Made by a program: the position numbers and the translations under genes. Below the pieces are notes generated by a model that did no database searches, was not told the DNA's origin, and saw only the letters and a list, made by a program, of their open reading frames with translations. A stretch of 64,000 nucleotides of DNA from the NCBI GenBank assembly GCA_905178155.1, contig CAJINV010000006.1:1737876-1801875 (forward strand). The letters run 5' to 3'. Source of the stretch: Amoebophrya sp. A120 (lineage: Eukaryota > Protista > Dinoflagellata). Positions 6,234 through 56,200 of the stretch are shown piece by piece; the first letter of the stretch is position 1, and each line of letters begins with the position of its first letter.

Positions 6234-6235
6234 AA

Positions 6236-10900: not shown

Positions 10901-13900
10901 CAGAGTGACCCTCCCCATGGCGGGAGGGGGCGTCGCGGTAGAGCAAAGTGATATTCATTGCAAATATGTCTGGGTGGTCTGGAAGGTTGCAACTTGTGAT
11001 GCTGTCTCTGCATTCTAAAAAAATCTGTATTGTATGACCAGCAAGTAGAGGGGTCCAGTTTGTGCTACGTGGAGAGAGCATTTCTCATGCGGAATAGGCA
11101 TCAGGAAGCCCTCCAAAAATCTGTGATGCTAGGTTGTGCAACATTACAGGCGTCACGGGTCATGTAAGATTTGCATCACACGTCTTGCATTCTTCCAGAC
11201 CTCCCAGGCAGTATTTGCATTCCATAAGTGAGGAAGAGCCACCACCACCGGTAAACCCCATGCCGCTGCAGGAGGCGTGGAGCCAGAGTGTGGGGAACGC
11301 AAAGTTATCAAATGCAAAGATGTCTGGATGTCTGGGCGGAGGTTGCGAGATCATTTGTCGTGCTAGTCGGGCATGACTCTGAGCTCTGTATTAATTCCGT
11401 GGCCGCAAAGAGCACGTCTTGCCTGTCATGTAAATAAAACGCAGTTTCTCATGCGGAGTTATTTGCAACTCAGAATCACGGAAAGAGTTGTCATGCTGGG
11501 CAGCGCATTACAGTGTGCTCACTATTCCCTTTCTTGCATCACAAGTTTCCATACCCAGGCAAAGGCATTTTTGCAATGCATAAAAGTCCTCATCCAACAA
11601 TAACCTTGGAACAAGCGGCGCGACCAGCAGCTCGTCGAGACCCGGTACGGGCCGCGGCGGGGGAAAGCAAGGCGGGAGTGGCGGCGGCCTGGCGGCGCTG
11701 AAGGGAGTAAATCTAAACATATGCATTGCAACAGTATCCGATACTAGTATACATAGATCGCATGACAAATTTCCTCAGCATGAGAAATAAAGATTTGTAA
11801 TGCGGATGGACCTTGAGAAAGAGATTTGCAATGCAGGAATGCGATTAGTACAACGAGTGTGGTGCTTTTGCAATGCATAAAACAAGGACGTGGACGATTT
11901 ACTGAATGAACAGGAGTATCCAGTGCAAGAAAAGGATCGTACTCGTATAAATGCATTAGAAATTATTTTCTCAGCATGAGAAATAAAATTTGTTATGCGG
12001 ATTGACCTTTAGAAAAAGATCTGTAATGCAAGGTTGGAATTACTACGAGTACGGTCGCGATGCTTTTGGATTTCATAAGGAGGAGCAAGGGGAGCCGGAC
12101 GACGAAACAAAAAAGCTATCCTGTGCAAAAGTATCGTACTCGTATTGCAATCATGCATTACAAATTTCCTTGTTAGGTCAAATCCGCATTACAAATTTTA
12201 TTTCTCATGCTGATGAAATTTGTAATGCATTTATACGAGTGCGATACTTTTGCAATGCATAAAAGCCACTCTTCAGCAATATCCTGTGCAAAGATAAAGA
12301 AAAGCATCGTACTCGTACGCAACTTCCCAGGAATGCATTACTACAAATCGCGATCTTCAGGTGAAACCGCATTACAAGAAATCTTAATGCTTCTCAGGCT
12401 CTACTAAATGTCATGCTATTCGTACTATGCGATACTTTATTTCCTTTTGCACTGCATAGGCAAAGACGACGTGCAATTTCTGGCAGAGGAGTTCAAGAAA
12501 CTGGACCAGCGGTTTGCCATCGCGAGCATCGACCGGCAGGAAATGGCAAAAATTCAGGCGGAGCTGGCAGTAAGCAGCGAGAAAGCGAGCGACTTGGAAT
12601 CGACTTGCAAGGCAGCGCGGGACTTGATATGCATTGCAGCTACGTCTGGGTCTGGAATAAACTTGTGATGCTAGGCTACGAGGAGTGACTGCTCTGTGAT
12701 TTTGTACAGCCAAGCATTATGAGAAATAAGATATACGTGTCGCGTCGTGTAGTTGCTCTTTCCGCATGACAAAGTGTGTTTTTGCGTGACAACAAGCAAA
12801 AGCATCTCTTCATCTTGGACACGACGCATCACAAACTCTTCAGTCATGCCAGACAAGCATGGCAAACAGTTGCATTCTACTTCCAGACCACCCAGACATA
12901 TTTGCATTGGATACTTGACGCAGAAATACCAAGTCGAAAAAACCAAATTGGAGGACGGCATGAAGAGAAGCAAATCGGTACCATCAAAATTTTTGTTTGT
13001 CATTGTCATGCGAACAACAAGAGTGCTAATATAGTGTCAATAACCTCTGTAGTCAACATCATGCGGTCTGTATTCACTACCAACACAAAAATTATTAGGT
13101 CGCCACCAAGTTGGCAGAGCGAGCGAACCTGGAGGACCAGCAAAATGACAGGGTACGGAAAACTATGAGAGTGTACAACTCGTACCCCTCCCTTTCATTT
13201 GTATGACATGAACAGCAACACAAACATAACTACACGTGGAGCCTGTGCATGACAAATTTATGTACCTACTGCTACTGTAGTAATGTTTGGGCTTCCAAAT
13301 AAATTTGTCATGCAAACAGTCCCACAACGCAGCGATTGGGTTCTGTTGATTTTGCATGGCAAATGAGGGCGAGGGGGGGTTGCGCACTCTCATAAAAACG
13401 GTGAGAAAACATGAAGACCACATTGCCTACCTTAAAAACCAGATGAAGGAAGCCAACGAGAAAAACGGAAAAGCTATAGCGAGAAAAAACTGTTTCACTG
13501 TGAACTTGTGATGCAGAAAATGGAACACAGAACTATTTGTCTTGCTACACGACCTGCAAGACATTGGATTTTCAAACGTGTTTTCGTCCCCTGGGAAGTG
13601 CGCGTGGCAAGTTTTCTTTGTCATGTAGGAGGAACTTGTGAAGCGAAACTCACAAAATGAAAATCGTCACAGTGAAACACTTTTTTCCCACGATAAAAGC
13701 GATCAAAGATCTACAGGCCGAGAACAGTAACCTGCGCAAGAAAAATATCGTACGAAAAAAGTTTGTCACAGTTACTAACTTGCAGGTTTTGCATTACAAA
13801 TTTTTTTAGCATCACAAGTTTTCCTTGTATTGCAGAAACACTAGGAAAATCCCCTATGAAGCTTGGCTGTGATGCATTTTTACGCATGACAGAAAATTTT

Positions 13901-15163
13901 GTATTGCAAGGATGCGCATGAGTGATCGTGACGAACTTTTTTTGTTTGATAAAAAACATGGAGCTGGAGCAGCAGCTGCGGACCATATGAACTGCAAAAG
14001 TATATCGTACTCGTATAAATGCATTACAAATTTTCCCAGCATGAGAAATTGAATTTGTCATGCGGATTTACCTTAAGAAAAAAATTTGTTATGCGTGACT
14101 GCAATTACTACGAGTGCGATAGTTTTGCACAGGATAAACCATATCGTCGAACAACAAGCAGCTGGAGAAATCCATCAACGAAAAGCAAACTGAGGTCGGG
14201 CTTCTTATGGCGTTCTCAAATTGGTTACCCTTACCCTCTCAGCTGTTGCGTGATCTGTCATGCAAAATTACCATCAGAGCCGACACGGCCAAGCAGCTTC
14301 GCATGACAAATTCTCGAAGGAGTGGCAAAGAGGCTGATAAAAATCTGTGCCATCAAATCTGTGATGCAAGACGCGCAAGATCCCCCCCTTTCATCACTCT
14401 TGCCCTCCGTGCATCACAAATCCGTGTAACAGTTGAGACGGTAACCGATTTGAGAATTCCATACTTGTGGAGCAGTGGCGGTCTCTATGACAGTGCACAA
14501 CTCCTCCCCGTCGTTCTCATTTCTCATGCAAAATACCAAATCCACGGCCACGCTTTCCCTCCTGTCACTATTATGCATGACAAGCTCTGGTATCCCAAGT
14601 AGCACTGGTGATGTACTCCAGTGCAACTTTGTCATGCAAATCCGGCACTCTTGCTGACGGTTGTATTGCTAAATATATAATGCTATACAAATGAGGGGAA
14701 GGGGGAGCTGTGCACTGTTATAGTCTCGTTCGGGGGAGTACTTCCGCGAAAAGTACGACTACGAGAACTCGCGGATTACCAAATGCAAATATGTCTGGGT
14801 CTGGAAGAATGCAGATTTTTCTCATGCTGTTTTTGCATGACACAGCAGGTCTGTTATGGAAGTCCTAGCATGATCACAGATATTTCATCGAGAACGTTCG
14901 GCAATGTTTAATCCGCAAGACAAATTCCCCTTTTTGGTGACAGGAAGTGGGCGCGTTTTGCTGCCTATGCATGAGACGAGATTTGCGCGTCTAGTGGAAT
15001 TCTCATCACAAGTTCGGATCCTCATCCTTCCAGACCCAGTCAGACATTTTTGCAGTTGATACGGATCACCAAGCTGCAAAACACGAACAAGCTGCTGCAA
15101 AGTCAGATCGCGGCGGCAAATGCCGGCTTCGACCGCTACTGCGAGCGGAAGGCGAAGATGTAG
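7964..15163 (+). CDS. Gene 2: coiled-coil-rich hypothetical protein with 21 introners and 2 canonical introns
   Basis: ATG 7964 (MPEQLQQQSSAA). The frame stays open through elements starting at 8203, 9052, ~9337, ~9555, ~9908, 10166, 10520, ~10952, ~11306, ~11720, ~11917, ~12117, 12280, ~12628, ~13164, 13475, 13746, ~13986, 14206, 14486 and 14777, and GT-AG introns 8444-8718 and 12978-13098, to TAG 15161-15163. It has E/K/Q/L-rich heptad segments (LERQVSQLEAKQKATDKKLKEEKRR; IKDLQAENSNLRKKNMELEQQLR). Confidence 0.85.
8444..8718 (+). other. Canonical GT-AG intron containing a decayed family A introner (~8562-8700)
   Basis: GTATTAG..TGATCAG, phase 1, joins ISE-G-DPSSPK in frame with ORF 8799-9056. 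Confidence 0.75.
12978..13098 (+). other. Canonical GT-AG intron
   Basis: GTACCA..ATTATTAG, phase 0, joins KRSKS to VATKLAER. Confidence 0.8.
13475..13695. mobile_element. Introner family F representative (about 205-225 bp; TIR TAT..GAAAAAACTGTTTCACTGTG)
   Basis: TSD AAAGC. Other copies at 21090-21304, ~28093-28300, ~38446-38671 and 54944-55152. Confidence 0.9.
13746..13951. mobile_element. Introner family K; an opposite-orientation copy lies at 54670-54880
   Basis: This copy ends ATCGTGACGAACTTTTTTTGTTTGATA and the 54670 copy starts TATCAAACAAAAAAAGTTCGTCACGAT; TSDs AAAAA and GAAAA. Confidence 0.9.
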
Positions 15164-16940
15164 TAGTTGATGAAACGGGAACGCGATCGCGAACGGACAG
15201 AGTGGTCTACTCGAGGACCGCTACAACTACAACTACATCGTCAATAAACCTTCTACTCACTGAATTTGTTGTTTTTCAACTACTTACTTTCATCAATCTT
15301 TATCTTTAATAGTGAACCACAACCAATACCAATTGCAAATTTTTCATCACAATCTTTTTACTATCTTTAGTGCAGATATGGAAGTGTCAGGATTGAAATC
15401 GTCAAAGTTGAAATAATTTGTGATGCATAAAATGCAACCCACAAAGTGCCTGCCTTGCAGAGTAGGCAAGGGAGGCACATTGCAAGGGGGGTAGAAATAG
15501 AGCTGCTAAAGTAGCATGACAGAAGGCGTCTTCCTTGTTACCCAAACAGCAATACAAACTGGATTTAAGCACCGCCAAAACTTGTCATGCGCCACTTGAA
15601 AACTGGGCTCCAACTGGCATCCATTTTATGCATGCCAAACTATTTCAACTCTGACGATTTGTTTCAAACCTGACACATCCATAGCAGAGCCACAAAAACC
15701 AATTGCAAATTTTTCATCACAATCTTTTACTACTTTGTTCACCAAAACTATCCGTACAGTACTTCTGAAGATCATGGTGCACAGACAGTGCCATGAAGAA
15801 GGCCGTTGATGTGCATGGAACACCAGCACCACCAGAGGCGAGCATTTAGACTGAATTTTAGACACAATAAGGAGAAATATACCTCCACTCAAGTAGAGCT
15901 ACCTTCAAGAAATAAAGTTTAGGCCACTTGATTTTCATTTTAGACAACTTTGACAGCGAGGAGAAGTGAAGTGCAGGATATCAGCAGTTTTTAGCTGTAC
16001 TAACAGACTGTGCGCGACGGAGGAGGTGCGGGGGGGAGAATGCATTTCGAACAAACGGGCAGGTGGACGAGAGCAAGTGCTATGAGATTCGGCAATATGG
16101 TCGTGCTCTCGACGACGTCCGGTAATTATGTTGCGCCTGTTTCTAGTACTCCGCGACTTGTTATATCCTTTGAAGACAACAAGAACAGAAGTACTTCTAG
16201 ACCCTGTATTTACACTACGTTGATTAGACCATTTTATTTTTATTAACTCAAGTTGGCATTGCCGTTGGACTTGGAGCACGACTGTGCGGCACCAGTACTA
16301 CACCGTTTGATGCAACAATACGGTCGTAATATCTACTTCGTGCTTGATTCATCATGTACAGATTGATACGTGAATAGAAGGTGACGAAAGAAGAGAAAGG
16401 TAAAAATGGGCTCAGCCACCTCGTGTTGATTGCAGTTGTTGACTAGTATCGATCTTTGATGAAGAGGACAAGCAAGAAGTTCTGCGACGTCGCGTGTCAT
16501 CTGGTTCATGACATCCCCATCAGAAAACAACGACCAATTGTTGTTTTCTTAGAAGATCTACACTAGGTCTTCAAAAAATACCAGAACGCCGAGAACGAGT
16601 GCAAGAAAAAATATAAGTGACTGTACTACTAGACCGCCGCGTGGCCTTCTAGTTGATGACGACCGAGGGCAAGAAGGGAGACCGTAGCTCTAGAATGCGT
16701 GGCTCGAGCGGGAATGAGGGACAAGAACTCGAGAGTAGATCTTGTAGTTCATCGTGGGTTATGTTTGTATTTCCTATCTTTAGGAAAGTGAACAAAGAGG
16801 ACTTCATCTGATACCCTGCAACTACTACAGCACGTCGACTAAGTTGTAGAAACCAAAAGCAAAACACAAGCAAGGAGAGGAACAACTAGACCCACTAGTC
16901 TTCGTCTTCAGGGGTCGTGGTCGCAAAAGAAGAAACCATC

Positions 16941-18555
16941 ATGCTCGGCCTCCGTCCCAACATCGCCAAACTGCCCGAGATATGCACTGCAAAAGTATCG
17001 TACAACTCGTATAGAGCCATGCATAGCAAATTTCCCCAGCATGAGAAATAAAATTTGTAATGCGGATTTAGCTTAAGAACAAGATTTGTAGTGCATGGCT
17101 GCAATTACTATGAGTGCGATACTTTTGCAGCTCATACGAGAGGGGTAACAGCTGTGCGGCAGAAACCGCAAGGAAAACCACCGGCAGCCTCTACTACGAC
17201 TTTGCGGACAGAAAGGCACGAACTTTGTCGAGCGGGCAAGAACTTGCGGCCGCTGCTATAACCCGTTCAGGTGTTACAATCTCAAACGGTACAATAGAAT
17301 TTGGATTTTGTGTTGCATGACGAGCATGACAGACTCGGACAGCATTCCACTTTGCGCAATACAAATTTCGCCAGATTGTAGCGCGGTTTGGGACTCCAGA
17401 ACTTGTCATGCGCAAACCTATGAGAGTCGGCTACATAATGCACCTCTTGCATCACAGATTTCGATATTCTATTGTAACATTTGAGATTGTAACACCTGAG
17501 CAGATTATAGCTGCTGGTGCAACGAGTTCGACTTCCACCAAAACCACCAGATTCAAGTATCAAAAGGAAAAATCTTCCCTCCCCATATCGAAACGGTACG
17601 ATTCCGAAAATTTGTGTTGCTGATTTGAGACCACAAATCGGGTCTGTCTTGCAAGGAGATAAGCGCAGAGGCTTCCGCGCCATTATGGAAGCGATTTGGC
17701 ATGCTGTTGGGCCTAGGGGACGCACGTTTGTAATGCTAAACAACTAGACCCAAGCGCCCCTATCTAGGCTGAGGATCTGGCTGCGATGCCTTACTGCAAG
17801 ACAGCGCGCATTTGTGTACGGAAATCCCGCATCACAGATTTCCGTGTTGATATGGGGAGCGGGGCTTTTTCATTTTGATATCAAGTCCGCAGCCGCGAAG
17901 CCGATCTCGTCGAACCCGCAGCAATTTCCAATCGCCGCTTTGTCCGCATTATGAATTGCAAAAGTATCCGATACTTGTATAAAAAATGCATTACAAATTT
18001 CCTCAGCATGAGAAAGAAAATTTGTAATGCGAATTTACCTTGACAAAATACAATTGTAATACAACGAGTATCAGATACTTTTGCACAGGATACGCATCCA
18101 GACTTGCTAAGGAAGAGCTGGATGACGGGCCTATTTTGGTGGCGTGCCATATGGGGATGTCAGGATCGAAATCGTCAAAGTTGAAATAATCTGTAATGCA
18201 AAAAAGCCATACCAGCTGGAGCCCAGTTTGCAAGTGGCGCATGACAAATTTTGGCAGCATGGAAATCCAATTTGTCATGCTGCTTGGGCAGAGAAAACTG
18301 CTTTTGTCATGCTATTTTAGCAGCTCTGTCTCACACCCCAAACAGGATTATAATCGGCCTCAGTTGGCTGCTCTGCAAGACAGGCACTTTGCGTCTAGCA
18401 TTTTATGCATCACAAACTATTTCAACTTTGACGATTTCAATTCTGACGCTTCCATATGCCAGAAGCCGGTCGCAGTTTTGAAGGCACAAGAGGGCTTGAG
18501 AAAGAAGAGGCTTGGGGAGAAAATTTTGCCGGAGACCGTGAGGGCAGAAACGTAG
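16941..18555 (+). CDS. Gene 3: short hypothetical protein with 5 introners; true start may lie upstream
   Basis: MLGLRPNIAKLPE|RGNSCAAE..AAA|GATSST..RFK|SAAAKP..SA|SRLAKEELDDG..AC|QKPVAV.. to TAG at 18555. Perfect TSDs CGAGA, GCTGC, TCAAG, CGCAT and TGCCA. Confidence 0.7.
17257..17509. mobile_element. Introner family J (single copy here, ~44-bp TIR TATAAYCYGYTCAGGTGTTACAATCTCAAA)
   Basis: TSD GCTGC; removal restores the gene 3 frame. Confidence 0.88.
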
Positions 18556-20377
18556 TGAAATAAACTTTGATCATATAAGATGATGAATTTCTCACTGACA
18601 AAGCTATTTTAGTAATTTTTTTTGTATGATGCTCTTGCAGTTGTCTAGAATGCAATTTATCGTGCTACAGTTAACTTCACTGCATGAGACGAGAAGAAAC
18701 TTGGTGTAGTCATGCGTCTTTTGCAATTACAACTGCGTTATCAAATGTAAAAATGTCTGGGTCTGGAAGATTCATGCTGTTTTTGCATGACACAGAAGGT
18801 CTGGCATGGAAGCTCTAGCATCACAGGTTTCGAGAAGCTTCCGCAATGCCGAACCCGCATGAGAAATCCCCTATTTTGGCGACAGAATTGAGCAGCTTTT
18901 GCTACCGATGCATGAGAGATTTTTCTGTGTTCGAAAATGCGCATCACAAGTTCGGATCCTTCCAGACCCAGACATTTTTTACAGAAAATTTTATAATCAA
19001 TACGAGTCGTATTAGACCGACGCAGAAAGCGCGCGCAATCGTATTGGTCCCATTGCTCGTATTGGTCGCCTCGTATTGACGTGGCGCCAGGGCCCCCAAG
19101 ATGGTAGGCCCGCCCAGCCGCCTGCCCTGATTGGTATACCGTAATCGCGTCGCGAAAAACGACCGCGCGCCGCTTGGAAACTTTTGAAAGTACTGAAGTA
19201 GCCACGCCACTAAAAAAAAAAACAACTCGGCGCCGCGCCTGCGGCGCGGCTTTTCCTTTTCCTTTTGGTAAACAACGGCTAACAAATTAATGGGAACTAG
19301 CGGGCGCTTGCTCTTGCTGGCGACGCCACTGTTTCCAAATACGCCCGCAGCGCAGCGCTGCTCCTTCTGCGCCCCTGACTCCTATGCTTCGCCATATGAG
19401 TTTGAGGGGCCGGGCAGAGTCAAGCATCGCCGCCATTCATCGGCGCCTGAGTTGGTTTGTTCCATCCTTGGACTCAGACTAGAAACAGGCTTCATTAGAA
19501 GTGGGGGGCCTCTCTCTCGAGATTTAGTTGTCCCAGGGGGACGAGGGCCCGACCGCGTATCATGTCCCGCGCCCGTCCTGTGTCATCTTAGAGGGGAAAG
19601 CCCCATGAAGATCGCAGCACCATGGAGCCGTGGGCCCGCACATTTTCGAAGGAAAGTTGAAGTGGCTATCTCAACGCTCCTCCATGCAGGAGAGTTGAAG
19701 GAGCCGCTTCAGCAACCTTTGCACCTCTTTTGTCCTTCATTTCTGCATGACAAATTTCCAAACTTGGAAACTTGGCATCCATAAATGAAGGGCCACAGAA
19801 TGAAAGCCAAAGTTGTTGAAGTGGCCACTTCGGCTTTTCCTCCATCGGAGATAGGAAAGTTTAAGTGGCCGCTTCGTCAGCAGTGAGTAGTTTGTTTGCC
19901 CCTCATTTCTGCATTGCACATTGCCAATCATGGTGGCAATTTGTATAAGCTGAAACGAAGGACAAAGAAAAGCGCTTCCTTTGTGCTTCGAAAGTTCCGG
20001 CTCCCGCTCGTGGGAGAACGAAAAAGCTGTGACGTGAGTAAAGATTTTACTGCTCAGGTCCGGCGGCCTATTAAGTAAAACTTTTACTCAGGTCCGATGG
20101 CCTGAGTAAAATCTTCAGCCAGGAGGAGCAGGGCCATGCCGAAAAAATTGCTCGCGAGCGGTCGGGATGAGAAAAACCCGCTTGAAAATTCAGAAAACGC
20201 TTGCCTTGAGAAAATTTTGCCGGAGACCGTGAGGGCAGAAACGTAGTGAAATAAAGATAAACTTTGATATAAGATGATGAACCTGTTCCAACTAACAAAT
20301 TCATTTTGAATTTTTTGTATGATGAGATGCTCTTGCAGTAAGTAGTTGTCTAGAATGCAATTTATCGTGCTATAGTT
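18517..20377. repeat. ~160-bp direct duplication (18517-18672 and 20208-20377) flanking a truncated introner plus a 1.2-kb insert
   Basis: GAGAAAATTTTGCCGGAGACCGTGAGGGCAGAAACGTAGTGAAATAAA..GTTGTCTAGAATGCAATTTATCGTGCTA is present twice, with small indels. Confidence 0.85.
18981..20207. mobile_element. Non-coding insert of unknown class abutting a family B introner (18739-~18980) that lacks its terminal bases
   Basis: Abrupt compositional change, repeated CGTATTG units at 19008-19078, hairpin TTTTACTCAGG..CCTGAGTAAAA at ~20082-20111, no credible ORF. Confidence 0.55.
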
Positions 20378-20465
20378 TTCTGCATCCGAGGAGCAAGCTG
20401 ATGTCAGGTTGCGTTTTTTGCAACGACAACTACATAATATCATCAGGTACGTCCGTCTTCACAGC

Positions 20466-28602: not shown

Positions 28603-29637
28603 AAGACAAAGAGGAGAAGGAATGGAGCAGATCATTGTGGCAAAAAAAGATATATGGTGCGGTACCAGAGCATAAGCAGGAGCAGCTGGTGCAGCCTCCA
28701 TGAAGCTTCATGAATGAAATGAAACTACTATAATACTCTATTCTTGCAATAGTACTACACCCACGGGACATCAGATGAAATCTTGGATTTTGATATGAAA
28801 AAACTCTACTGCGCTACTTACGCGTCGTACACCAGCCTATGGAACGTCTCGGGGGTCAAAGAAAAATATAAGCGTTTCTTTCAACAAGACAATGACAAAT
28901 CTCAGACACAAGAACTACCTCGAAAATGAATGACATGTAGAAGATGAAGAGACGGTCTACTTCTTCGCAGAAGAAAGTTGTAGTTGCATAAGCGTTACAA
29001 GAGCTCCTCGTACGAAGAGGTTCTTCTTTGGTCTCGCGCAAATAAAGTATAAGATCAGCAACGAAGTGAAATTCACGCTCTAGAAGCAAGAGCCTGGTAT
29101 TGATCCCTCCAGCGCGGATCGTTAAATGAGCGGCCTGGATCTTGAGATGAACCAGTTATAATTGTATGACGATCTTCAAATTCAAAACGCAAAAATTCCA
29201 AAGTAGATGATCCTGATCGCGATGATTTTGGAGTTCAACTTAGCAATCGTTCCGACCGTGTGATGAATCTCATGCTAGGCTAGGGGCGAAACTCCGCCTT
29301 CATTGTGCGCAGGCAGTTGATGTCATGGTCATGCGTACGGCTACGGACGAACAAACGTATTTTCACCTCTAAATAAATTCAACAGGGAACAAGTTAGTCG
29401 AAGTCAGTACAACGCAGTTCATGCATTCTGATCTTTTGTCAGAACTGTTGTAATTTCTTGTGTGTCCTCTTCTATAATTTTTCCTCAAGGTAGTCGTAGT
29501 TCGTCGTAAATTTATTCACGCGCGATTTCTACACTTCCTCATCCCGAGAATAAAGTCAACAACTCGTGCCTATTTAAGACCACAAATAATACTTACCTCC
29601 TTCCACCACCAGACTTTGACTTGTCAGACACATCAAA

Positions 29638-44200: not shown

Positions 44201-47200
44201 TGAATAGTAACCACACTGTAATGCACCGCCAAGCATGACAGCTTTTCTCGGGGCTTTGTGTTGCGTATTTCGGATGAGAAACATCGTTTTTGCATGACAG
44301 ACAAGAGGAGGTGTTCCGATGGCCCGACGCAATACAGAGTTCTTCAGAGTCACATGCCAAACTAGCATGAGAAATCTCGCAATCTTCCGGAGGACCCAGA
44401 TCGCTATTTGCGATGCATAACGGCGTGTACGTTCGGTGTCACCGACAGGATTTCGGCTCCTTCTGGGACTGGGCCGACAACAACATCCCGGATGTATGCA
44501 CTGCAAAAGTATCGTACTCGTATTGCAGTCATGCATTACAAATCTTTTTATTAAGGTAAATCAGCATTACTACAAAATTTATTTCCCATGCTGAGGAAAT
44601 TTGTAATGCATTTATACGAGTGCGATACGTTTGCAATGCATAGGATGACAAGGGCGACTATACCGCAATCTACGGAGCTAACAACCAGAAAGCAACGAAT
44701 TCTATGCTCTGCAAAAGTATCGTACTAGTACAAACTGCATTACGATAACGATTACAAATTTGGTCAGCATGAGAAATGGAATTTGTCAAGCTGTTTAACC
44801 TTGGGATGGAGATTTTTGATGCATGAGTGCGATAATTACTACGAGTACGATACTTTTGCACAGGATAAATTCCTGGTGGCCGGCCCCCATCCGGAAGAGC
44901 GACGACTTGCCGGCCGAGTGCAACTACCGGCGGGGCAACGACTACTACCCGATGTGGATGGAGTTCAGTAACGTTCCCTATGAGCTCCGCAACCACCATA
45001 TTACAATGAAAAATGCCCCCTCCCCATATCAATACGGAAATCTGTGATGCAGATTTGTGGTCACAAATCAGCTTTGTGATGCTAGAAGGCAAAAGATGCG
45101 GACTGTAGTGCTGTCTAGCGTGGGAGTAAACCTATGCAGCTCCAGGATGACAAAAGGCAACTAGACAAGCGGGAAACAGCATGACAGATTGCCTGCGATT
45201 TAGGCCGCAGCTTCGTCTCTTGGCCTTCTAGCAATACAAGTTGATTTGTGTACTCAAATGCAGCATCACAAATTCGCGCATCTTCCGTTTCCGATATGGG
45301 GTGGGGGCTTTTTCCACTTTGATACGCCACACCATCTGGAAGGGCAAGGCCCGCGACGCGGGAGGCAATCCTATTCTGAGGAAAAATCCCCCCTCCCCAT
45401 ATCGAAAAGGTGTGCTTCCGAAAATTTGTGTTGCTGATTTGACGTCACAAATCACGTCTGTCTTGCAACAAGACAAGCGCAGAGGCTTCCGCACCATTAT
45501 GGAAGCGATTTGGCATGCTGTTGCGCCTAGAGGGCACCCTTTTGCAATGCTAAGCAGCTAGACCTATACGCCCCTACCTAGGCCGAGGATCTGGCTGCGA
45601 TGCCTTACTGCAAGACAAATCCGATTTGTGTACCCAAATCCTGCATCACAGATTTCCATTTCGATATGGGGAGGGGAGATTTTTCCTTTTGATAAATCCG
45701 GGGCATTGGTTTCCCGAAGAGCGGCCGGGAGACCAGAATGGCTTGGGTACGGGGAAGTGGAAACTGCCCATGCCCGGTATCAAAGTGAAAAAAGCCCCTA
45801 AGAACCCATACTCAAAAGACAATTTGTGTTGCTGGATTTGTGTACACAAATGAACTTTGTATTGCAGCCAGAGCTTGTGCTTGTCGGCATATTCTAAGCC
45901 CATTTCATCTTGGGCACGCATCCGGCTAGCAGGTGCGCATGAGAAACAAGTCTGACAGAGCAGGCGAAAACGCATGACAGACTGGATGCACATCAATGCG
46001 CCACATGGGTGCCGTTTGCATTGTACAACGCAAGACAAAGCTGATTTGTGGTCACAAATCAGCATCACAAATTTTCTTTTCGATATGGGGAGGGAAATAA
46101 ATTTTTCCTTACGATACCCGGGGTGGACATGCCGAACTGGGTCTGGAAGACGGACAAACAGCGGAAAGACATGAACCTGAACTGGAAAAAACTTCTCGTC
46201 GACGCGGCCCTGGTGCGCGTGCGACACTGGTATCATAAGGACCGGGAGTATGTCCGCGACCAGCACGTGTCCGCGGAGTATGCATTGCAAAAGTATCGTA
46301 CTCGTATAAATGCATCACAAATTTCATCAGCATGAGAAATAAAATTTGTAATGCTGATTTGCCTTAACAAGATGATTTGTGATGCATGACCGCAATACGA
46401 GCACGATACTTTTGCACAGGATACGGAGAAATACGAAGGAAAAATTTTGGGCACGATGGACCGAAAATTATGCAAGAAAAAAACATTGTTACGTGTAACT
46501 TTGTGATGCGCATCAACATGCATATGCAAGATGATTGCATCTGTCATGCTGGGCATGCGTTGCAAGGTCCATTCAGGAGCGTTTTCACGTACCATCTGCG
46601 CATGACAGGCTTTTGCTGTAATGCAAGACAGATTTGTCATGCTGTTCCCCCAAGATCAGAGTTACACCTACAATCTTTTTTTCTTGGATAGAAATTACCG
46701 CTGGAACAGTGGGGAGACACGGAAATGGTATAGTGAGTAGGATCATTTTTATTTGTAGTAAGTTGAAGTTGATACTAGCTCGTAGTTACTTCCTGTTCCG
46801 GTTGCTGTTCTATTGGTGTGAGGCAGATTTAAGAGGTTGCTTTCTTGTTCGTCATAAGAAAGTCAACTACTACCAAGCATGGCACCTCATTGTAGCATGC
46901 CGGTACTAGTAGTACCGCTTAGGAGAAAAAACATCAACATATATCATAAACGTCTCTCCCGCTCTACACCTACAGTATGACCTCCAACACTTCCGACCGG
47001 GGCCGCAACCCGAACTCACCATTCCGGCCCGCAACCTGCGCGCCATCGAGGGCGGACTGCGGATAACCTGCGGCGACAACAGCGAATGGGGAGATCGGGA
47101 GGGCATCGTGACCTCGTGGCGGCAGGTGCCGGAAATTTGCAAGAAGAACTTCAAGTGGAAGGTGCAGCTGTGGGGCAATCTGGACGACGATACTTCGGTT

Positions 47201-50200
47201 GCGGAAAAGCCGTATCAACCGCAACTACGTCTGGGTCTGGAAGCTTGTGATGCTCAAGTATGCATGAGTCAGGCGCTTTCAAGTGCAGCCAAGCATGACA
47301 AGTTTAGTTGACCACGCCGTCTGACGCGTAGCGCGCATGACAAACCGCGTTCTACTTCTTGCATCACAAAAAAATGGTGCCTTTGCTGGCTATGCAACAC
47401 AGATTTGTTTTCAGGAATGCAAGACATGCAACACAGGTTCCACTTTTATTCCAGAGCCAGACATATTTGCGATGCATAAGCCGGCAAACTGGAATCGGGA
47501 GCAGAAGGAGTACCGAAAATTCATCGAGTCTGTCCTCGCGAATCAGGCTATGGCCTGGCCGGCACCGCAGTCCAACATGCTCCAAGTCGACGCGATGTCG
47601 GAGTTATGAGAGTGCACAACCCCCCCCCCTCCCCCTCATTAATATTTACATTGCTTGACTTCCGGGTTCTGGTCCCGCCTACCCCCCGGCGACAGGTGAC
47701 CTTGACAGGTGACCTTGACAGGTGACCTTGACAGGTGACCTTGACAGGTGACCTTGACAGGTGATCGTGACAGGTTACCGTGACAGGTGACCTTGACAGG
47801 TGACCTGGACAGGTGACCTGGACAGGTGGCCGCGACAGGCGAAGCGTGAGGATAAAGCAAAGGCGAGGCCAGCGCCTGGGCGCAAATATTTATTTTTCAC
47901 GCCAAATGCCGCTCTTGACGTGAAAAATAAATTAAAAGCGCCAAAAAAAAAAAACGACGCAAAAATTGAAAAAGATTAAAGCTGTAACACAAACTGCCTC
48001 CATAAGCAAAGAAGTCTTTGCGTTCGCGTTGCCATGCAAAAATAAAAAAGCGGCTATCTCTGCAATGCACGGCCAGGAAACAGCTGCTCTCTTTGCTCTG
48101 TGGAACCGGAAAGGCGTTGCGCTTCAATATTAGAGAACTTTTTTGCAGAAGCCACACAGAGATATTCACTTTGCTTCTATTTTTGTTTTTTCTTGCAAAA
48201 TGCAGGGCGCCTAATTCGCCCTTTTTCCACTAGCGCTTCGCGCACTGAGCCACTACGCGCGCGCCTGGTGTGAGGCGAGGGGCGGACGCTGTCCGCCCCG
48301 ATGCCGAACACCCTTCCCCCACTAGCGCCACTAGGGACGAGCACAAGGCCCCAGCGTGGGGACCCTGTCCCCACGCTCGGGTGGGCCTTGTTTGTCATGC
48401 AAAATACTTAGCTTACGCCTTGCCTCTTGGCACTGTCTGCATGACAAGTTCTGGCAGCTGCCCAAATAGCACTACACTCCTGTCCACATTTGTCATGCGA
48501 AACCTGCATTCTTGCTGACGCTTGTATTGCTGTTCATACGATACTAAAAATGAGAAGAACGGGGAGTTGTGCACTTTCATACGAGTTCGAGTGCTCGAAG
48601 AAATGCTGTGGAAATCGGTTCTGCAAGTCGTTTTCCTATTTGAAAAACAAAACGAGGAAGAACAACTGCTTTATCAAGTGTAAAAATGTCTGGGTCTGCA
48701 AGAGTGGAAGATTTGCGATGCAGGTTTTCCATGACTCATGAGGTCTGTAATGCATGGTCTAGCATCACAGATTTTGAGAGGGCTTCCTCGTGCCTGTTCC
48801 GCATGAGAAATGCCCTCTCGCCGTGGCAAAAACTGGACTCCTCTCGCCGGTCATGCATTACAGGTTTTTTTTTGAATCCGAAGACAGCATTACAAGTTGC
48901 AATCTTCCAGACCCAGACATTTTTACATTTGATACGCTTGCTTTTCAAGCAACTCGACGCGGCGGTCATTTCCACGAAAGCTATGCATTGCAAAAGTATC
49001 GTACTAGTAGAAATGGCATGACAAATTTGAATAGCATGACAAATGAAATTTGTAATGCAGATTTACCTTAGGAAGCAGATTTGTATTGCATGATTGCAAC
49101 TGGTACGAGTACGATACTTTTGCAAAGCATAAAAGCGACGGAGCTGCGAAACACCCCCTGCGGTAAGGAGGTCTCGCACATGCAGTTTTGCCGGCAGACC
49201 GAAAAATACTGCAGCTACTTTGCCGACCCGAACGTCTCGCCGATTTTTTCGAAAGTGGATGAAGCCTCCCCGTTGACCACGCTAAGCGGAGATATGAAAT
49301 GCAAAAATACCTGGGTCTGGAGACTTGTGATGCTGGGTGGCGTATCATGAGGAGGCCACAAGTGCTGGCGCAGCATGACAAGTTTCTGAGCTTCTAGGTG
49401 TTGCCCACTCTGCATGACAGACTGCGTTTCTGCACGACAGAAAAATGGGTAGGTGGCTACCGTTTGAAGTTTATAAACGAATGGGACGCCCTGCCCTTAG
49501 CCTTCCAACATGACAGAAAAATGGGGCTGCTCTTGGGTAACGTGCATGACAGATTTATTAAGAGTCATGCCAGACAAGCATGACAAACGTGCACTCTTCC
49601 AGACCCAGACATTTTTGCATTTGATAGGAGAGAACGTGAAACAAGCGGCCGCGCCGAAGTGTCAGCAGTGTCCCGATTTCAAGAACGGAGAAACCTGTGC
49701 GTCCATATGAGAGTGCACAACTCCCCCTCCCCCTCATTTGTATGGCATGATCAGCATTACAACAACCAGCGCACGTAGGGCCTGCGCATGACAAGTTCAA
49801 GCTCACGCGCGTACTAGTGCAGTACTGTTTGGGCTTCCCGAAAAATCTGTCATGCAAACAGTGCCACAATCTGGCGCTTGGATTTGGTCACTTGCATTAC
49901 AAATGAGGGGGAGGGGGAGTTGGGCAATCTCATACTCCATGGTGCAGAAGCAGAAGGAGGCCGGGATGTTCGACGTGAATATTTCGAAGAGGATACTGTG
50001 AGGAAAACCGTTCCCACCTTAGAGCCAAGATGGAGATTTTGCAACACAAACCTAAAGAGTTTTGCGAGCCACGCATGACAAGTTCAAGTTGGAGGCTGTA
50101 TTGTAGTGCAGTTTAGCTGGTGCAACGGAATCTTCCGCATAACAAATCCACCTCCTTATAATCCTGTCTACAGCATTACAAGTTTCATCAAAACACGATT

Positions 50201-53200
50201 GGAAGGGCCTCTCTACTTGGGGATGCGCATCACAAATGCTCCTCTGCTTGCCAATCTGCATGACAACTACTCTGGTGTGGGAACATTTTTCCTCAGGATG
50301 GAGGAACGGGCAGAGCGCCGACATCGACGAGCAAGCCCGGGACATGCTGATCTCCGAGTCCAGTGCGAACTGCAACATCAATTGCCAGTTCGATCCGCGG
50401 CCGTGGAAAACGTGCAAACTCGACACGGTGGATATCCAGAGGAAATTTCCCGTACACGTACAAATCAGGTCTCTGCATGACAAAGCTTGTCTTCCATCCT
50501 ACTTAGCATGACAAGTGGCATGCTCTAAGTTGGCAAAATTTGTGATGCATTTTGTACATGTGCGGGACATTTCCTGTGGATAGTGGACGCTACCTACGAA
50601 AAAGACCCACTACCCGTCGTGTACGCGAGCGTCCGCCTCCGGCCCAGGATCAGAGAGTTATCAAATGTAAAAATGTCTGGAAGAATCCGAATTTTGTTAT
50701 GCTGTTTTTGCATGACACAGAATGTCTGTCATGGAAGCCCTAGCATCACAGATTTTTAGAGGCCTTCCTGATGCCTATTCCGCACGACAAATGCCCTCCA
50801 CGCGTAGCACAAACCGGACTCCTCTTGCTGGTCATGCAATACAGAATTTTTGTAGAGTCCAAAAATAGCATCACAAGTTTCAACCTTCCAGATCCAGACA
50901 CTTTTGCAATCCATAAGAGTGGGTGCCAGACGATTGCTGTGGCGGTGAGTGGGTGTGGAACTGGAATCAGCACGGCCTATGCATTGCAAAAGCATCGTAC
51001 TAGTATAAATTGCAATACAAGTTTCCTTAGCATGAGAAATAGAATATGTCATGCGGATTTGCCTAAATAAAAAGATTTGGAATGCAAGACTTGCATTTAT
51101 ACGAGTGCGATGCTTTTGCACAGCATACGGGCCCTGGACCGACTACCAACCCATCCGGGACATCTCGGACTTTGCGAAGTCGCGGTTCAAATTATCAAAA
51201 GGAAAAATCCCCCGTCGCCATGTCGAAACGAAGTCTGTAATGCTGGATTTGCGTACACAAATCACATTGGTCTTGCTGGAGAAGATGACTGTAAGTCCAT
51301 ATCAAGTCGGAGTAGAGCGGTCATGGCCTAGGCACTTAGCATGAGAGACGTCTGCGCTGTAGGCCCAACAGCATCACAGACCGCCTGCATAATGCGGCGG
51401 CTGTCTGTGGAATTGCCTTCTTGCAAGATGACTGAGGCGATTTGTGGTCGCGAATCAGCATTGCAAATTTTCTGCTCCGTAGCTTTTTGATATGGGGAGG
51501 CGGGGTCTTTCCTCGCGATACAAATTTCAGGGCAGCGAAGCGGAGCAGTCTATCACTATTAAAGGAAAGGATAGAGACACCAAGATGCGGCTGGGCCGGT
51601 CCAAACCCACGGAGGGGTTTGGTTCTTCCTGGGAAAAGGTCCTATCCCAGAAAAAAAGATTGTAGCTGTAACTTTTTTGGCTGATTAGCATTACAAACCT
51701 GTCTGGCATGACAGCAGAAACCTGTCATGCGCAGATAGCATGTCAAAACGCGCTTGAATGAGAATGAACCTTGCAATGCATGTCCAGCATGACAGACGCA
51801 ATCATCTTACGTGTTGCGCATCACAAACTTACACTAACAATGTTTTTTTCCTGCATAGGTGCCCGTAAGCGACGAATACCCGGACGGGTGGCGGTACCGC
51901 GGGAAGGTCGGGGAGATGTTTATCAAAGTGAAAAATCCCCCCTCCCCATATCGAAAAGGATCGCCTCAGAGAATTTGTGATGCTGATTTGTGACCACAAA
52001 TCATGTCTGTCTTGCAAGAGAGCGACGGCATGGGCTCCGCCCTATTATGCAGGCGGTTTGTAATGCTGTTGGTCCTACACCATAGACGTGCCCCATGCTA
52101 AGCGCCTAGGCCAGAACCTCTCTCCATTGGCGTGGTATGGGCCTGCAGTCCTCTACTGCAAGACCAATCTGATTTGTGTACGCAAATCCAGCATTAGAAA
52201 TCTCGTTTTGATATGGGATGGGGGCTTTTTTCACTTTGATAATGTTGTTTCCGCGGCCCTCCAAAAATATGGCGGTAGACCTGCAGTTTATGGTCAAGAA
52301 CTCCGACGGCCACAAGATATCCTGTGCAAAAGTATCGTACTCGTATTGCAATCATGCATTGCAAATATTTTTCCTAAGGTAAACCAGCATTACAAATTTT
52401 ATTTCTCATGCTGAGGAAATCGAAATTTGTAATGCATTTATACAAGTACGATGCTTTTGCACTGCATACAAGACCACCGTGAAAAATATCGTGGTGCCGG
52501 GGCGCAACGAGAAGCTGCAGCAGAGGTTTTTGCCGTTTTTCCCCACCGACTACTTCAAAAAAGTCCAAGACATCTATGACAGTGCACAACTCCAACCCCC
52601 CCCCCTCATTTGTATGGCATGAACAGCAATATAACCACCAGCACACATGGAGCCTGTGCATGACAAATTCATGTGCCTAATGTAGTACTATTTGGGCTTC
52701 CGGAATTTGTCATGCAAACAGTGCCACAAGGCAGCGAGAGCGACTGGATTTGGGATTTTGCGTGACAAATGAGGGGGAGGGGGAGTTGTGCACTGTCATA
52801 ATATCGGCGGGGTGCGGAAAGTCATCCAGAAAGCGTGGCGGATGAAGAACGAGATCAACCCGGTATCCTATGTAAAAACGTCCCCACAACTTCCGCCCCA
52901 GAGTTGTCATGCAGATTTGCAATGACAGGAACATTTGTGATGCGCATACCCATGATAGTCATCTCATTGCCATTTCCAATTGTGTTTTGAAATTTGTAAT
53001 GTTGTAAACAGGATGAGTAGATAGCTTTGTGATGCGGCTGTCCTTGCTAACCTGAACTACACCACGGACTGTAGCGCGTCATGCGTGACTCCCAAAACTT
53101 CTGGATTTGTGTTGCGCACTGCCCAAAAATCAGTGACTCCGGGACGAAGGTGGGGACCACGTTTTTCCACAGGATACCCGGACCGTGGAATTTTTCGGAA

Positions 53201-56200
53201 CGCCATTGTGGAATTCGTGAACCGGAAGAAGATACGCATGGCAAAAGCATCGCAATCATAGTGGGAACAATTGCATTACAAATTTGCGCAGCATGAAGAA
53301 TTGAATTTCTCATGCGGATTCGCGCACAAAGATAGATCTGTCATGCGTGCTTGCAATTGATTCCACCTGTCCTGAATGCGATGCTTTTGCACAGGATAGA
53401 AGGCCAAGGTGCTCTACTGGGACCCGGTCCACGAGGAGGCCGTCTTGCAGGACTTGGCTACCTATGGATTGCAAATACAGAATTTGTGTTGCTGAAGCGC
53501 GCATCGCAGAAGGTGTCCGCTTGTACGGCATGATAACAGCATGAGAAATTTTGCGAGGCTTAGGTTTGCAGATTCACTCCTCGTGATAAAACGCATGACA
53601 AAGAACTTCACAGCATGACAAAAAAAACTAGCGACTCGTATTCACGCATCACAGATCTTGTAGTCCTTCAAAGCTCGCATGACAAAGACCGTCGATATTT
53701 GCAACGCATACTACCTCGCGCGTGTTCTACCAGCAGCGACCGGAGGTGCACTTTCACGCCCCGAGGGCTAAGGACAACTACACCTGCCACGAGGGGATCC
53801 GCGTGCAGACGCGGTTATGCACTGCAAATATGTCTGGGTTTGGAAGGATGCAGCTTGTCATGCTAAATTTGGATCATGCAAAAATTTGTGTTGCATGATT
53901 ACCAAAAACTGTCCATTTTTGACCAAGTTGGGAGTGAGTTTCTCTTTCTCATGCAGGATAGGCATGATACAGATCATCTCACAGAATCTGTCATGCTAGA
54001 TCCTGCATTGCAGACCTCATGTGTCATGTGGAACCTGCATGAGAAGTCTTGTATTCTTCCACACCCAGACATATTTGTACTTGATACCGGTTGCACGAGA
54101 TCAAAACCGTGACCGCGCCGTCGCAGGAGGAGTGCGCGGTGCAGTGTGTATCCTGTGCAAAAGTACCGTACTCGTATAAGGAATGCCAGACTAGCATGAC
54201 AAATCTGGTTTCTTAGGTAATTTAGCATGACAAATTATTAATTATTAATTTTTCATGCTGAGCTAATTTGTAATGCAGTTTATACTAGTACGATGCTTTA
54301 GCTTTTGCAGTGCATAGTGTGACAAGCAGACCAACTGCGAGAGTTTTGACTTTTTCAAAGGCGAGGAAAAGTGGCGAACGTCGAAGCAAATGAACTGTCA
54401 TCTCTACTCGAAGAACGGGCACACGAAAGAGCTGCTCTTGCGGGACAGGTATCAAGTGCAAACGTGCAGCCTGGGTCTGGAGGAAAACTGTGATGCCGGT
54501 TTGTTAATGGTAGGCGCACTGCAACTTCTATACGCGGCGAAGCATGACAAAATTTTCAAAATCCTATCACACCCAGATCCATGTTTGCAATGCATAACAG
54601 GCAGGGGTTGCGGAAGGAAAAAATCCATTTTGGAAGACGCAAGGCGGACATTAACATGGACTTGGAAAATATCAAACAAAAAAAGTTCGTCACGATCATT
54701 CATGCGCATTTTTGCAATACAAAACTTTCTGTCATGCGTAAAAATGCATCACAGCCAAGCTTCGCGAGGGATCTCCCTAGCGTTTGTGCAAGACAAGGAC
54801 AAGCTTTGATGCTAAAAGTTTTTGTAATGCAAAACCTGCAAGTTAGTGACATGACTGTGACAAACTTTTTTCTCTTCATAGAAAAGGTGCTGCCAAACTA
54901 CAAGCAGAGCAAGCACAGCAACGAGTATTCCCGGATGGGAATTTAGGCAAAGAAAAAACTGTTTCACTGTCAACTTGTAATGCAGAAAATGCATCTTAGA
55001 AGTGTTTGTCTTGCTACACATGCAAGACACTGGATTTTTAGCTGTGTTTTCCCATTGGAACCTCGCATGGCAAATTGTCTCTGTCATGCGGAACAAACTT
55101 GTGATGCGAAACTTGCAAAATCCTTACAGTGAAACACTTTTATCCTGTGATAGAATTCCGTTCCTCGAAGCACCTCTGAAGCCCGACAAAGAGCAGGAGA
55201 AGACTTTCATTTTCCAAATCCCGTGCGTATAAACTGCAAAGGTATCGTACTAGTATAAATTGCAATTATACAAATTAGCTCAGCAGTACAAATTGAATTT
55301 GTAATGCGGATTTCACTTAAGAAAAAGATTTGTAAATGCATAAAAGCAATTAGTACGAGTACGATACTTTTGCACTGGATAGTGCGAGGCGTGCATCAAC
55401 TCCTGGGCCCGACACGGCATGGCGGTCACGGAAACCAAGGATTTCAACCAGGATATCGCAAGGGAAAATCCCGCCTCCCCATATCGAAAAGGTATGTCTC
55501 AGAAAATTTGTAATGCTGATTTGTGACCACAGATCGTCTCTGTCTTGCAAGAACGCGGTCGGTTTGTAATGCTGTTTGCCCTACAGCCTAGACGTTTGCC
55601 ATGGTCAGCGACTAGCCCAAAACATCTCGTCTGCTCACTCTTACTATAGGCATGCAGTCCTCTCAAGCAAGACAAATCTGACTTGTGTACGCAAGTCCAG
55701 CATTGGAAGCCTCGTTTTGTTGATATGGGGAGGAGGGACTTTTCCTTTTGATACAAGACCTGGACCCCGACAGCGCCGGCGATTTTTCCAAAAGCGTCCA
55801 CATGGGCACCGGCGCCACCAGGGGACTGAACGGCGCGCGAGACCGGCTGTGGTGCAGAAACGGGAACGGTGCCTTGGTCAATAACCGATGCTCGGTGCAG
55901 GAGCTGGGGCACGCACGGCGGTATCGAATGCAAATGTATGTCTGCTGGGTCTGCTGGTGAAGACTGTTGCAACTTGTGATGTGCTACCTTTGGACTGTTC
56001 TATTAGAACAGTCCAAAGGTAATTTTTATCAAATAAAAATCTGTATCGCCTGAGCAGAAAGAAGAACAGTCCAGTTTTTGCTACGTGGACGACGAGGAGC
56101 ATTTCTCATGCCCGGATGGACATCAAGGCGGCTTCTTCAAAACGTCTGTGATGCTGGGGCCTACGTTACAGATCGATCATGCGTCATGCAAGATGTGCAT

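Follow-up and report, generated by a model that had tools for sequence, protein, structure and literature searches.

TAT…ATA introner elements of Amoebophrya sp. A120: either-orientation introns with strand-polarised terminal bases

The elements that interrupt the genes in the window (the whole 64-kb stretch of Amoebophrya sp. A120 DNA analysed here) are miniature DNA transposons whose inverted ends read TAT…ATA and whose insertion duplicated 5 bp of the target. They match the published A120 introners and are removed as introns in both orientations. Three of their terminal bases, U+2, A+3 and A−7, are conserved in a strand-polarised way. On balance, their removal is probably carried out by a relaxed U2-type spliceosome, which would use an N-U-A-Y 5' site, a predicted branch A at −7 and a 3' site lacking AG, the latter set by the stem between the element ends.

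Anatomy, families and host genes of the elements

The window holds 120 catalogued elements (1622..60267), which cover 41.9% of its length. Terminal inverted repeats (TIRs) paired with a duplication occur 117 times, compared with 6–7 in three base shuffles, and 57 of 87 elements picked by their TIRs only are flanked by perfect 5-nt duplications, against 0–3 at lengths of 3–4 or 6–10 nt. Positions 11–14 of the element ends hold A in 81–92% of cases (n = 1240 ends). TIRs, a duplication of fixed length, small size, absence of coding capacity and two orientations are all found, as in MITEs, while interior sequence and length vary from family to family. Eight longer copies (489–1104 nt) were found in 680 kb; the reading frames of the longest (L001), inspected by eye, contain nothing transposase-like. 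Across 573 elements, an internal motif shared by the two strands was hit 922 times in sense and 874 times in antisense.

Every window family with at least two copies includes both orientations (24 + 15 in family A); overall the ratio is about 50:50, without bias. The four opposite pairs named in the initial annotation are reverse-complement copies in + strand reading frames, with global identities of 0.75–0.88 as reverse complements vs 0.59–0.70 forward, and all eight of the coordinates proposed for them are exact element ends (Table 1). Within the part of a single host gene at 39982..46727, families A, 2 and 4 are each present in both orientations. The further claim that all hosts are on the + strand holds for 109 of the 120 window junctions, as called by a codon model trained on other loci; two junctions are minus (17257 and 17558, with weak scores) and nine are uncalled. 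Since RNA contigs cannot show the strand of the RNA, this claim rests on reading frames. Pfam matches above the cut-off were obtained for two of 13 exons, both on the + strand (PF10338 and PF00024), and a search of viral contigs with one exon as the query gave no match.

The insertion sites look unselected, with no target or frame bias, which, like the balanced orientations, fits the proposal that insertion is near-neutral. This proposal is weakened by the lower number of introner elements in translation genes (PMC7789003), which suggests a cost.

Table 1. Elements, host frames and comparison intron in the window
Feature	Coordinates (strand)	Length; duplication	Observations
Element	13746..13951	206 nt; AAAAA	Reverse-complement partner of 54670 (identity 0.85; forward 0.59); frame restored
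Element	21686..21913	228 nt; CCCAA/CCCAC	Reverse-complement partner of 43226 (identity 0.75; forward 0.59); frame restored
Family A element, orientation 1	28393..28544	position-4 mismatch	RNA piece begins 28549; left duplication copy kept, provided the upstream join is the expected one
Host frame	32315..37072 (+)		1336 codons after removing five elements and one duplication each; RNA contig 32192-37519
Family A element, orientation 1	32672..32816	145 nt; GTCCC	Missing from RNA contig jointly with 32986
Family A element, orientation 2	32986..33130	145 nt; GAGCG	88% identical to reverse complement of 32672 (identity 0.88; forward 0.70)
Part of one host gene	39982..46727 (+)		20 elements; 744 stop-free codons after removal
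Family A element	40579..40733	mismatch at position 5	Joint 40573>40734; right copy kept, cut <= −1
Family A element	40995..41127	mismatches at positions 2 and 4	Joint 40993>41132; left copy kept, cut >= −1
Element starting with TAC instead of TAT	42836..43161	mismatch at position 5	Still removed; joint 42829>43161; right copy kept in RNA
Element	43226..43448	223 nt; ACCCG	RNA joint 43220>43449, skip 228
Element	43535..43749		Oriented as 51643, opposite to 46469; RNA joint 43529>43750
Element	46469..46690	222 nt; AAAAT/GAAAT	Reverse-complement partner of 51643 (identity 0.81; forward 0.62) and 43535; RNA depth 0
Ordinary GT-AG intron, comparison class	46728..46975 (+)		Starts GTATAG; RNA loose end; recovered by blind model
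Element	51643..51857	215 nt; GGTCC/GGTGC	Frame restored
Element in PAN-domain gene	54670..54880	211 nt; GAAAA	Frame restored

Removal from RNA and the position of the cut

Evidence for removal comes from assembled RNA contigs of one sample. All 18 junctions shown (15 RNA joints and three from adjacent contig pieces) skip exactly the element plus 5 nt, and they comprise both orientations of three families, confirming that the same kind of element is removed as an intron either way round. Among the named pairs, 32672 and 32986 are jointly absent from one RNA contig, in which 300 nt (2 × 150) are missing, and the removal of 43226 is seen directly as an RNA joint. For 46469 the evidence is indirect, as RNA depth is 0 across the element and 36 nt are covered behind it, while 13746, 54670, 21686 and 51643 are probably removed as well, judging from their restored reading frames. 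In the window, + strand frames are restored at 103 of 111 junctions when 5 extra nt are taken out, at 102 with 2 or 8 and at 70–85 with other lengths, the DNA frame test giving the length of removal modulo 3 only.

Where the two copies of a duplication differ, the copy kept in RNA limits the position of the cut, and the allowed offsets of all junctions overlap at −1 alone. As this is the only offset that fits every junction, a single fixed cut is inferred, which places the intron boundaries 1 nt upstream of TAT and 4 nt downstream of ATA (N-TAT…ATA-NNNN). Intron ends of the GT-AG type would result from this cut in only 15 of 573 elements.

Explanations other than RNA splicing by a host machinery, namely DNA excision (like that of ciliate eliminated sequences), absence of the elements from another strain, or self-splicing, seem extremely improbable. 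The RNA nature of the spliced runs is a guess, which leaves some room for such explanations; however, the same contigs also skip the ordinary GT-AG intron and become sparser in the intergenic stretches, and reads of the DNA run X1 pass continuously from flank to element at the five junction regions shown, with no break or difference, indicating that the elements are retained in DNA. Joined forms were not among the DNA reads listed, in a table swamped by repeat cross-matches. Self-splicing is opposed by the different interior sequences and lengths of the families, and by an Rfam search of the window that gave no match at the gathering score and hence no ribozyme family, in line with the initial view that the elements have no ribozyme core.

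Polarity of the terminal bases and the role of the stem

The initial annotation attributed removal to symmetric features only, without a polarised branch point, and this view is not supported by the distribution of changes at the element ends. In 541 strand-called copies, whose ends were located blind to the last three bases, sense-strand changes at +2/+3/+4 number 0/1/13 vs 8/12/3 at the mirror positions −5/−6/−7 (37 changes in total; Fisher p 1.9e-6). The pattern is the same in the 440 copies outside the window (0/1/8 vs 6/10/3, p 4.1e-4) and in the subset whose duplications are perfect (n = 430, p 1.2e-4), and is weak for + strand loci alone (p 0.09). U at +2 never changes in the 573 copies, TAC accounts for 11 of the 13 changes at +4, and A at −7 is present in 570 of 573 copies, the three others being two clean cases and one that is probably mis-registered. 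Variants at the 3' end include ACA, ATG, ACC and AAA. Mutation bias is ruled out by the interior sense-strand rates (T>C 2.9%, A>G 3.2%), and wobble by the excess of A·C over G·U at terminal pairs 2 and 3 (8:1 and 7:1). Nevertheless, the six terminal bases change by 0–2.3%, vs at least 4.4% per site for duplication differences, meaning that a symmetric constraint exists too.

The stem itself folds end to end on either strand (254 and 255 of 260), as the initial annotation had claimed, and fold stability shows no preference between sense and antisense (p 0.28). It may nevertheless matter as sense RNA, as suggested by pair 21 of family A, which is U·G in 24 copies and C·A in four once the search-bait copies are left out, and by stem positions 4–10 of the other families, with 105 G·U vs 68 A·C (p 0.006); this excess is absent at positions 11–40 outside family A. 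A broader set of orientation-dependent columns in family A (4–26) was discarded as partly an effect of the search bait, which lies at the 5' end in 80 of 105 bait copies; in the retest excluding these copies, position 21 holds and position 22 is weak.

tRNA-type cleavage is associated with a bulge-helix-bulge in a given register or with a tRNA body, and IRE1-type cleavage with CNGCNG-type motifs in loops at the two cuts. A fully symmetric mechanism of either type (TSEN or IRE1), followed by ligation, would agree with the lack of orientation bias and with a 4-bp flank helix slightly more frequent than in shuffled sequences (0.325 vs 0.267 ± 0.017). It is nonetheless very unlikely, since the terminal bases are polarised and the cuts fall beyond the stem, by 1 nt on one side and 4 nt on the other, where the flanks are unpaired and variable. 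Neither geometry put forward in the initial annotation is borne out, as the bulge-helix-bulge helix is in register in 4 of 573 elements (for one assumed register), and the IRE1-type motif is missing from the 5' cut of all 573 and occurs at the 3' cut of 10.

A protein nuclease–ligase route would have to be polarised as well. Such a spliceosome-independent system, of the kind suspected for the euglenid nonconventional introns, would read the stem together with a few polarised bases; it could consist of a nuclease with a ligase, or of a transposase or integrase domesticated to work on RNA. Its merits are a stem on both strands, the shared two-strand motif, the lack of enrichment of G at +1 (133/445, as in exons) or of AG at the 3' end (56/445, about the expectation from base composition), the failure to detect U1 snRNA in A120 (PMC7789003), and the release of euglenid TIR introns as full-length circles (PMC11282704). 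This alternative is rather unlikely, if to be taken seriously, because it leaves unexplained why U+2, A+3 and U/C+4 copy the ordinary donors, and why A−7 is maintained whether or not its stem partner pairs.

The resemblance to ordinary donors comes from 89 predicted introns, in which GTAT (28/89) and GTAC (15/89) are enriched compared to nearby GTs (5.0% and 6.6%), and GTAA and GTAG are not. The start of the element would thus equal an ordinary donor without its G. Only 8 of 49 predicted ordinary introns have A at −7, their 3' sites being model-predicted and some of them wrong. In yeasts, the loss of SNRNP27K accompanies a preference for U at +4 (PMC10581693), and snRNP27 has not been detected in A120, whose reported components include U2, U4, U5, U6 and an almost full set of spliceosomal proteins (PMC7789003).

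A spliceosome might also branch at another A, such as that at −12 or one in the internal motif, with A−7 forming part of 3' recognition. In keeping with this, position −12 is A in 385 of 573 copies, a U run occupies −19 to −15, and 423 of 573 elements carry the internal motif on each strand. This alternative is improbable, given that a third of copies lack an A at −12 and that only one of ~2,300 interior columns in families 1–9 depends on orientation at p<0.01.

Known introners and a candidate mechanism

More than 60% of introns in Amoebophrya A25 and A120 are non-canonical, and their mechanism of removal was left open (PMC7789003). The elements share with the A120 introners a TAT-starting inverted repeat, about seven variable bases followed by an A run, short direct repeats at the boundaries (given as 5 bp in the Fig. 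S19 legend), intron ends of the NT-NN form (the only ends among the nine commonest non-canonical splice sites of A120 in Table S4), many families and co-oriented genes (PMC7789003). In the parts of that paper available to us, the splice position is variable or unknown and orientation is not treated, so that the ~50:50 orientations, the fixed cut, the polarised U+2/A+3/A−7 and the match to GTAY donors go beyond them. In the open literature searched, no listed paper deals with how Amoebophrya introners are oriented, where they are cut or where they branch.

The premise that spliceosomal introns are strand-specific is contradicted by Polarella glacialis, in which several introner classes create introns in either orientation, with Aureococcus anophagefferens cited likewise; these are also TIR transposons with target duplications (10.1101/2020.10.14.339549). 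Since both the elements and either-orientation introners were already described, two-way removal is not new in kind. The Polarella and Aureococcus introners use G-starting donors (GT, GC, GA) and AG acceptors provided by the element or the duplication, and a bias towards one orientation is noted (10.1101/2020.10.14.339549), unlike the elements described here, which exhibit no G+1, AG, target preference or orientation bias. The MITE-derived introns of Fritillaria borealis likewise combine TIRs and a duplication without GT-AG, and are removed by an adapted spliceosome with preferred AG-AC and AG-AT ends and duplicated U2AF paralogs (PMC11282704, PMC13326754), whereas here the ends are NT-NN and U1 snRNA is not detected. 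Euglenid nonconventional introns, of likely MITE origin, also have their ends joined by a terminal stem and variable junctions, with pyrimidine/purine junctions, a CAG/CTG stem and released circles (PMC11282704), in contrast to the TAT/ATA ends and 5-bp duplication of the elements.

The minimal set of signals proposed here is the same as in the group III introns of Euglena plastids, which hold U at 2, a branch A usually at −8 and sometimes at −7, and variable 3' ends (PMC5572947). This is an analogy of signals and not membership, and signals are all that was compared, group III introns having no ribozyme core. They are plastid introns of 91–120 nt, derived from group II, with G at +5, a domain VI hairpin confined to the region of the 3' end, and neither TIR nor duplication (PMC5572947).

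According to the favoured reading, the spliceosome would recognise a 5' site of the form N-U-A-Y together with a predicted branch-like A seven bases upstream of the AG-less 3' site, the end-to-end stem would join both sites, and the 3' site would be set by distance. TAT would give U+2, A+3 and U+4 at the leading end in either orientation, and the complementary ATA would place A at −7 at the trailing end; reversibility would follow because the inverted repeat carries the two signals on each strand. The three-base repeat would hence combine a 5' splice site with a candidate branch A spaced by seven bases, as in group II/III introns. The bases directly before A−7 are variable and give no sign of strong U2 pairing, and without a preference for G+1 or AG, the second step would run without its usual signals. 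More tentatively, such a spliceosome, freed of the G+1 and AG rules, might splice every RNA that a TAT…ATA stem encloses.

The removal rule N-TAT…ATA-NNNN mends gene models, turning the fragments in the window into long frames, and the question of intron removal in A120 is narrowed to a single cut site with three bases under polarised constraint, and a predicted branch at A−7. If the proposed mechanism is true, insertion at any site and in either orientation would yield an exact intron, the transposon end being a complete two-way splice signal. This would show the extent to which a spliceosome can drop the dinucleotide rules, as well as a route by which a transposon becomes harmless to coding sequence both ways.

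Element families, host genes and orientation

Repeats cover 47% of the window by self-comparison. A search for TAT…ATA termini, inverted ends and a flanking duplication recovered 112 elements, whose 5-bp duplications are perfect in 79, with one mismatch in 30 and two in three; candidate pairs numbered 117 in the real window versus 6–7 in three base shuffles. Among 87 elements chosen on inverted ends only, 57 carry a perfect 5-nt duplication, mean flank identity being 0.88 at length 5 versus 0.22–0.30 at other lengths. With ends found blind to the last three bases, 120 elements make up 41.9% of the window. These elements match the A120 introners described by Farhat et al. 2021 (PMC7789003), which have been assigned to several transposon classes (Gozashti et al. 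2025, PMC12130899); ordinary introns are described for Amoebophrya ex Karlodinium and AT5 (PMC12005148). An internal motif common to the elements, GCA[TA]NACA[AG], occurs on both strands at 14.7/kb versus 0.9/kb elsewhere. Its sense copies are densest in the second fifth of the element and its antisense copies in the fourth; it is perhaps a transposase or splicing-factor site.

The four pairs proposed as reverse-complement copies are confirmed as such, with forward/reverse identities of 0.70/0.88 (32672/32986), 0.59/0.85 (13746/54670), 0.59/0.75 (21686/43226) and 0.62/0.81 (46469/51643), and both orientations are present in 14/14 window families with at least two members. Long + strand frames appear once each element and one duplication are taken out (Table). 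The initial annotation placed all host genes on +, which a codon model, with other loci as its training set, supports for 109 of 120 junctions, with two weakly scored minus calls and nine uncalled; Pfam matches above the cut-off were found on + in 2 of 13 exons.

A pattern scan of one public assembly gave 126 loci with the same families (best matches to window elements have a median identity of 84%). Removal of overlaps left 120 loci which, with the window, comprise 680 kb and 689 elements. Host strand was assigned to 467 of the 569 elements outside the window, adjacent calls agreeing in 365 of 367, and dropping three rows with bad or cut ends left 573 sense-oriented copies. No orientation bias was found in any family tested (family A 123:96, p 0.08, search-bait copies included; next ten families, p 0.14–1). 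Target duplications have roughly exon composition, with no preference for G at +1 or for AG at the 3' end, and removed lengths spread evenly over the three frames; the sites thus look unselected, in line with the near-neutral insertion proposed earlier. Introners of Polarella and Aureococcus also occur in either orientation, but with G-donors and AG (10.1101/2020.10.14.339549).

Removal from RNA and position of the cut

RNA evidence comes from contigs of runs X3–X5, one sample whose RNA nature was guessed rather than labelled. They behave as RNA, since an ordinary GT-AG intron is also skipped. A single X3 contig covers 32192–37519, its five listed pieces showing no differing letters, and skips three elements, leaving gaps of 166, 134 and 150 nt; over the same span, 300 nt are missing across 32672 and 32986 jointly. 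For 40250–46900 each run gave one contig, with 15 joints listed (and seven more), the listed ones skipping the element plus 5 nt. The lengths (118 nt between pieces) imply that three more elements are gone; RNA depth is 0 over element 46469. Families A, 2 and 4 are each removed both ways round inside this one gene, whose spliced frame runs for 744 codons with no stop, so that removal in either orientation, as first annotated, is upheld. The DNA run X1 passes from flank into element without differences, and DNA-level loss or self-splicing is highly improbable.

The cut was located from mismatched duplication copies, where RNA reveals which copy stays (Table). An offset of −1 is the sole value compatible with all 18 junctions; family A in orientation 1 is bounded to −1 or 0. 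Assuming one fixed offset, the intron is N-TAT…ATA-NNNN, in agreement with Table S4 of Farhat et al. (PMC7789003), where T is second in all nine of the commonest A120 non-canonical ends. In the text passages of the literature searched, no statement was found on orientation, fixed cut or end polarity of Amoebophrya introners.

Coordinates of elements, frames and other features (window positions; locus-copy coordinates for loci L001, L028 and L045, outside the window)
Feature	Position	Details
Left copy retained, from joints	36684, 41743, 40358, 44151, 40995	mismatch positions 1–4
Left copy retained (mismatch positions 1–4), from piece ends or depth	31184, 28393, 44999, 46469	
Right copy retained	40579, 42836	mismatch position 5
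+ strand frame, 756 codons		crosses 11 elements
+ strand frame, 1336 codons		crosses 5 elements
Gene	16899–18552	weakest strand call of the window; 3' end partly duplicated near 20200 (16843–18552, 20100–20431)
406-codon frame	62782–63999	no elements; end FG-like, low-complexity; no Pfam match
1185-nt repeat	38797–39981	TAT start, right end unmatched, within 43-nt duplication; 99% copy in outside locus L052, likewise inside ~50-nt duplication; depth and record length suggest skipping in RNA; junction may depart from the A−7 rule
Region of decayed family A copy	29728–29955	enclosed by 42-nt exon duplication, inside GTAT-starting intron; first exon of gene matches PF10338
Enlarged family 4 element	47605–48581	977 nt, through nested material including 13-nt tandem array
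Other enlarged copies	49293, 55922, 56614	
Copies outside coding frames	6237–6470, 8562–8690, 15377–15683, 18737–18990	ends decayed or duplication lost in several; ~45 nt of flank duplicated at 15377–15683
Longer TAT…ATA elements, without assigned coding function	L001 505–1608; L028 6184–6998; L045 7392–8209	5-bp duplications
GAGAA/TTCTCAC short repeats	25128–25660	near-perfect palindrome ~25430–25500; no relation to TAT families

Polarity of the ends and mechanism of removal

Because families insert both ways, sense-strand asymmetry must postdate insertion. Among 541 copies with ends found blind, changes at intron positions +2/+3/+4 number 0/1/13 versus 8/12/3 at their partners −5/−6/−7 (p 1.9e-6; 4.1e-4 outside the window alone, 0.09 in + strand loci alone). 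Interior substitutions are strand-symmetric, and for two of the three pairs wobble would give the reverse pattern. Since 5' and 3' changes differ in this way, U+2/A+3 at the start and A−7 at the end are constrained, being kept whether paired or not, contrary to the claim of symmetric features only. One 5' end variant, the TAC-starting 42836, is seen to be removed from RNA; the three clean-looking exceptions to A+3 or A−7, an anecdotal set, all carry either a G at +1 or a terminal AG.

The inner stem pairs at the RNA level on the sense strand. Stem pair 21 of family A, bait copies aside, is U·G in 24 cases and C·A in four, and stem positions 4–10 of other families hold 105 G·U and 68 A·C; no G·U excess was seen at their positions 11–40. 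The ends pair in 254/260 sense and 255/260 antisense folds. Structure-guided removal is retained insofar as the stem matters, with signals that are polarised and resemble spliceosomal ones. Symmetric removal of the tRNA (TSEN) or IRE1 type, as initially proposed, failed both the register and the motif test and lacks a place for polarised ends, making it very unlikely.

A gene model given only GT and AG predicted 203 ordinary introns, 89 with good flanks, and recovered the RNA-shown intron at 46728–46975. Of these 89 predicted donors, 28 are GTAT and 15 GTAC, motifs that make up 5.0% and 6.6%, respectively, of the GTs nearby; neither GTAA nor GTAG shows enrichment. TAC accounts for 11 of the 13 changes at +4 of the elements, and the element start N-TAT, with TAC as usual variant, is the predicted ordinary donor minus its G. 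A preference for U at +4 has been tied in yeasts to loss of SNRNP27K or METTL16 (PMC10581693), and snRNP27 is reported as undetected in A120 (PMC7789003). Group III introns share U+2 with the elements, and their branch A lies at −8 or −7 (PMC5572947; see also PMC4424553). A at −7 is absent as a feature of predicted ordinary introns (8/49).

These signals point, with a slight preference on our part, to a relaxed U2-type spliceosome, a reading built on few variant copies and one RNA sample, with A−7 as the candidate branch. The absence of U2-like sequence around A−7 and the reported non-detection of U1 in A120 (PMC7789003) count against it. A polarised protein nuclease–ligase removing the elements is a possible but doubtful alternative, and a spliceosome using a branch site other than A−7 is improbable. 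In the relaxed spliceosomal mechanism, N-U-A-Y would be read as donor, A−7 would serve as branch and the stem would act as a ruler setting the AG-less acceptor. The inverted repeat would put donor and branch signals on both strands, so that orientation would be irrelevant. The initial annotation is right in its observation and half right in its inference: the structure plays a part and insertion looks unselected, but the signals are polarised and similar to spliceosomal ones.
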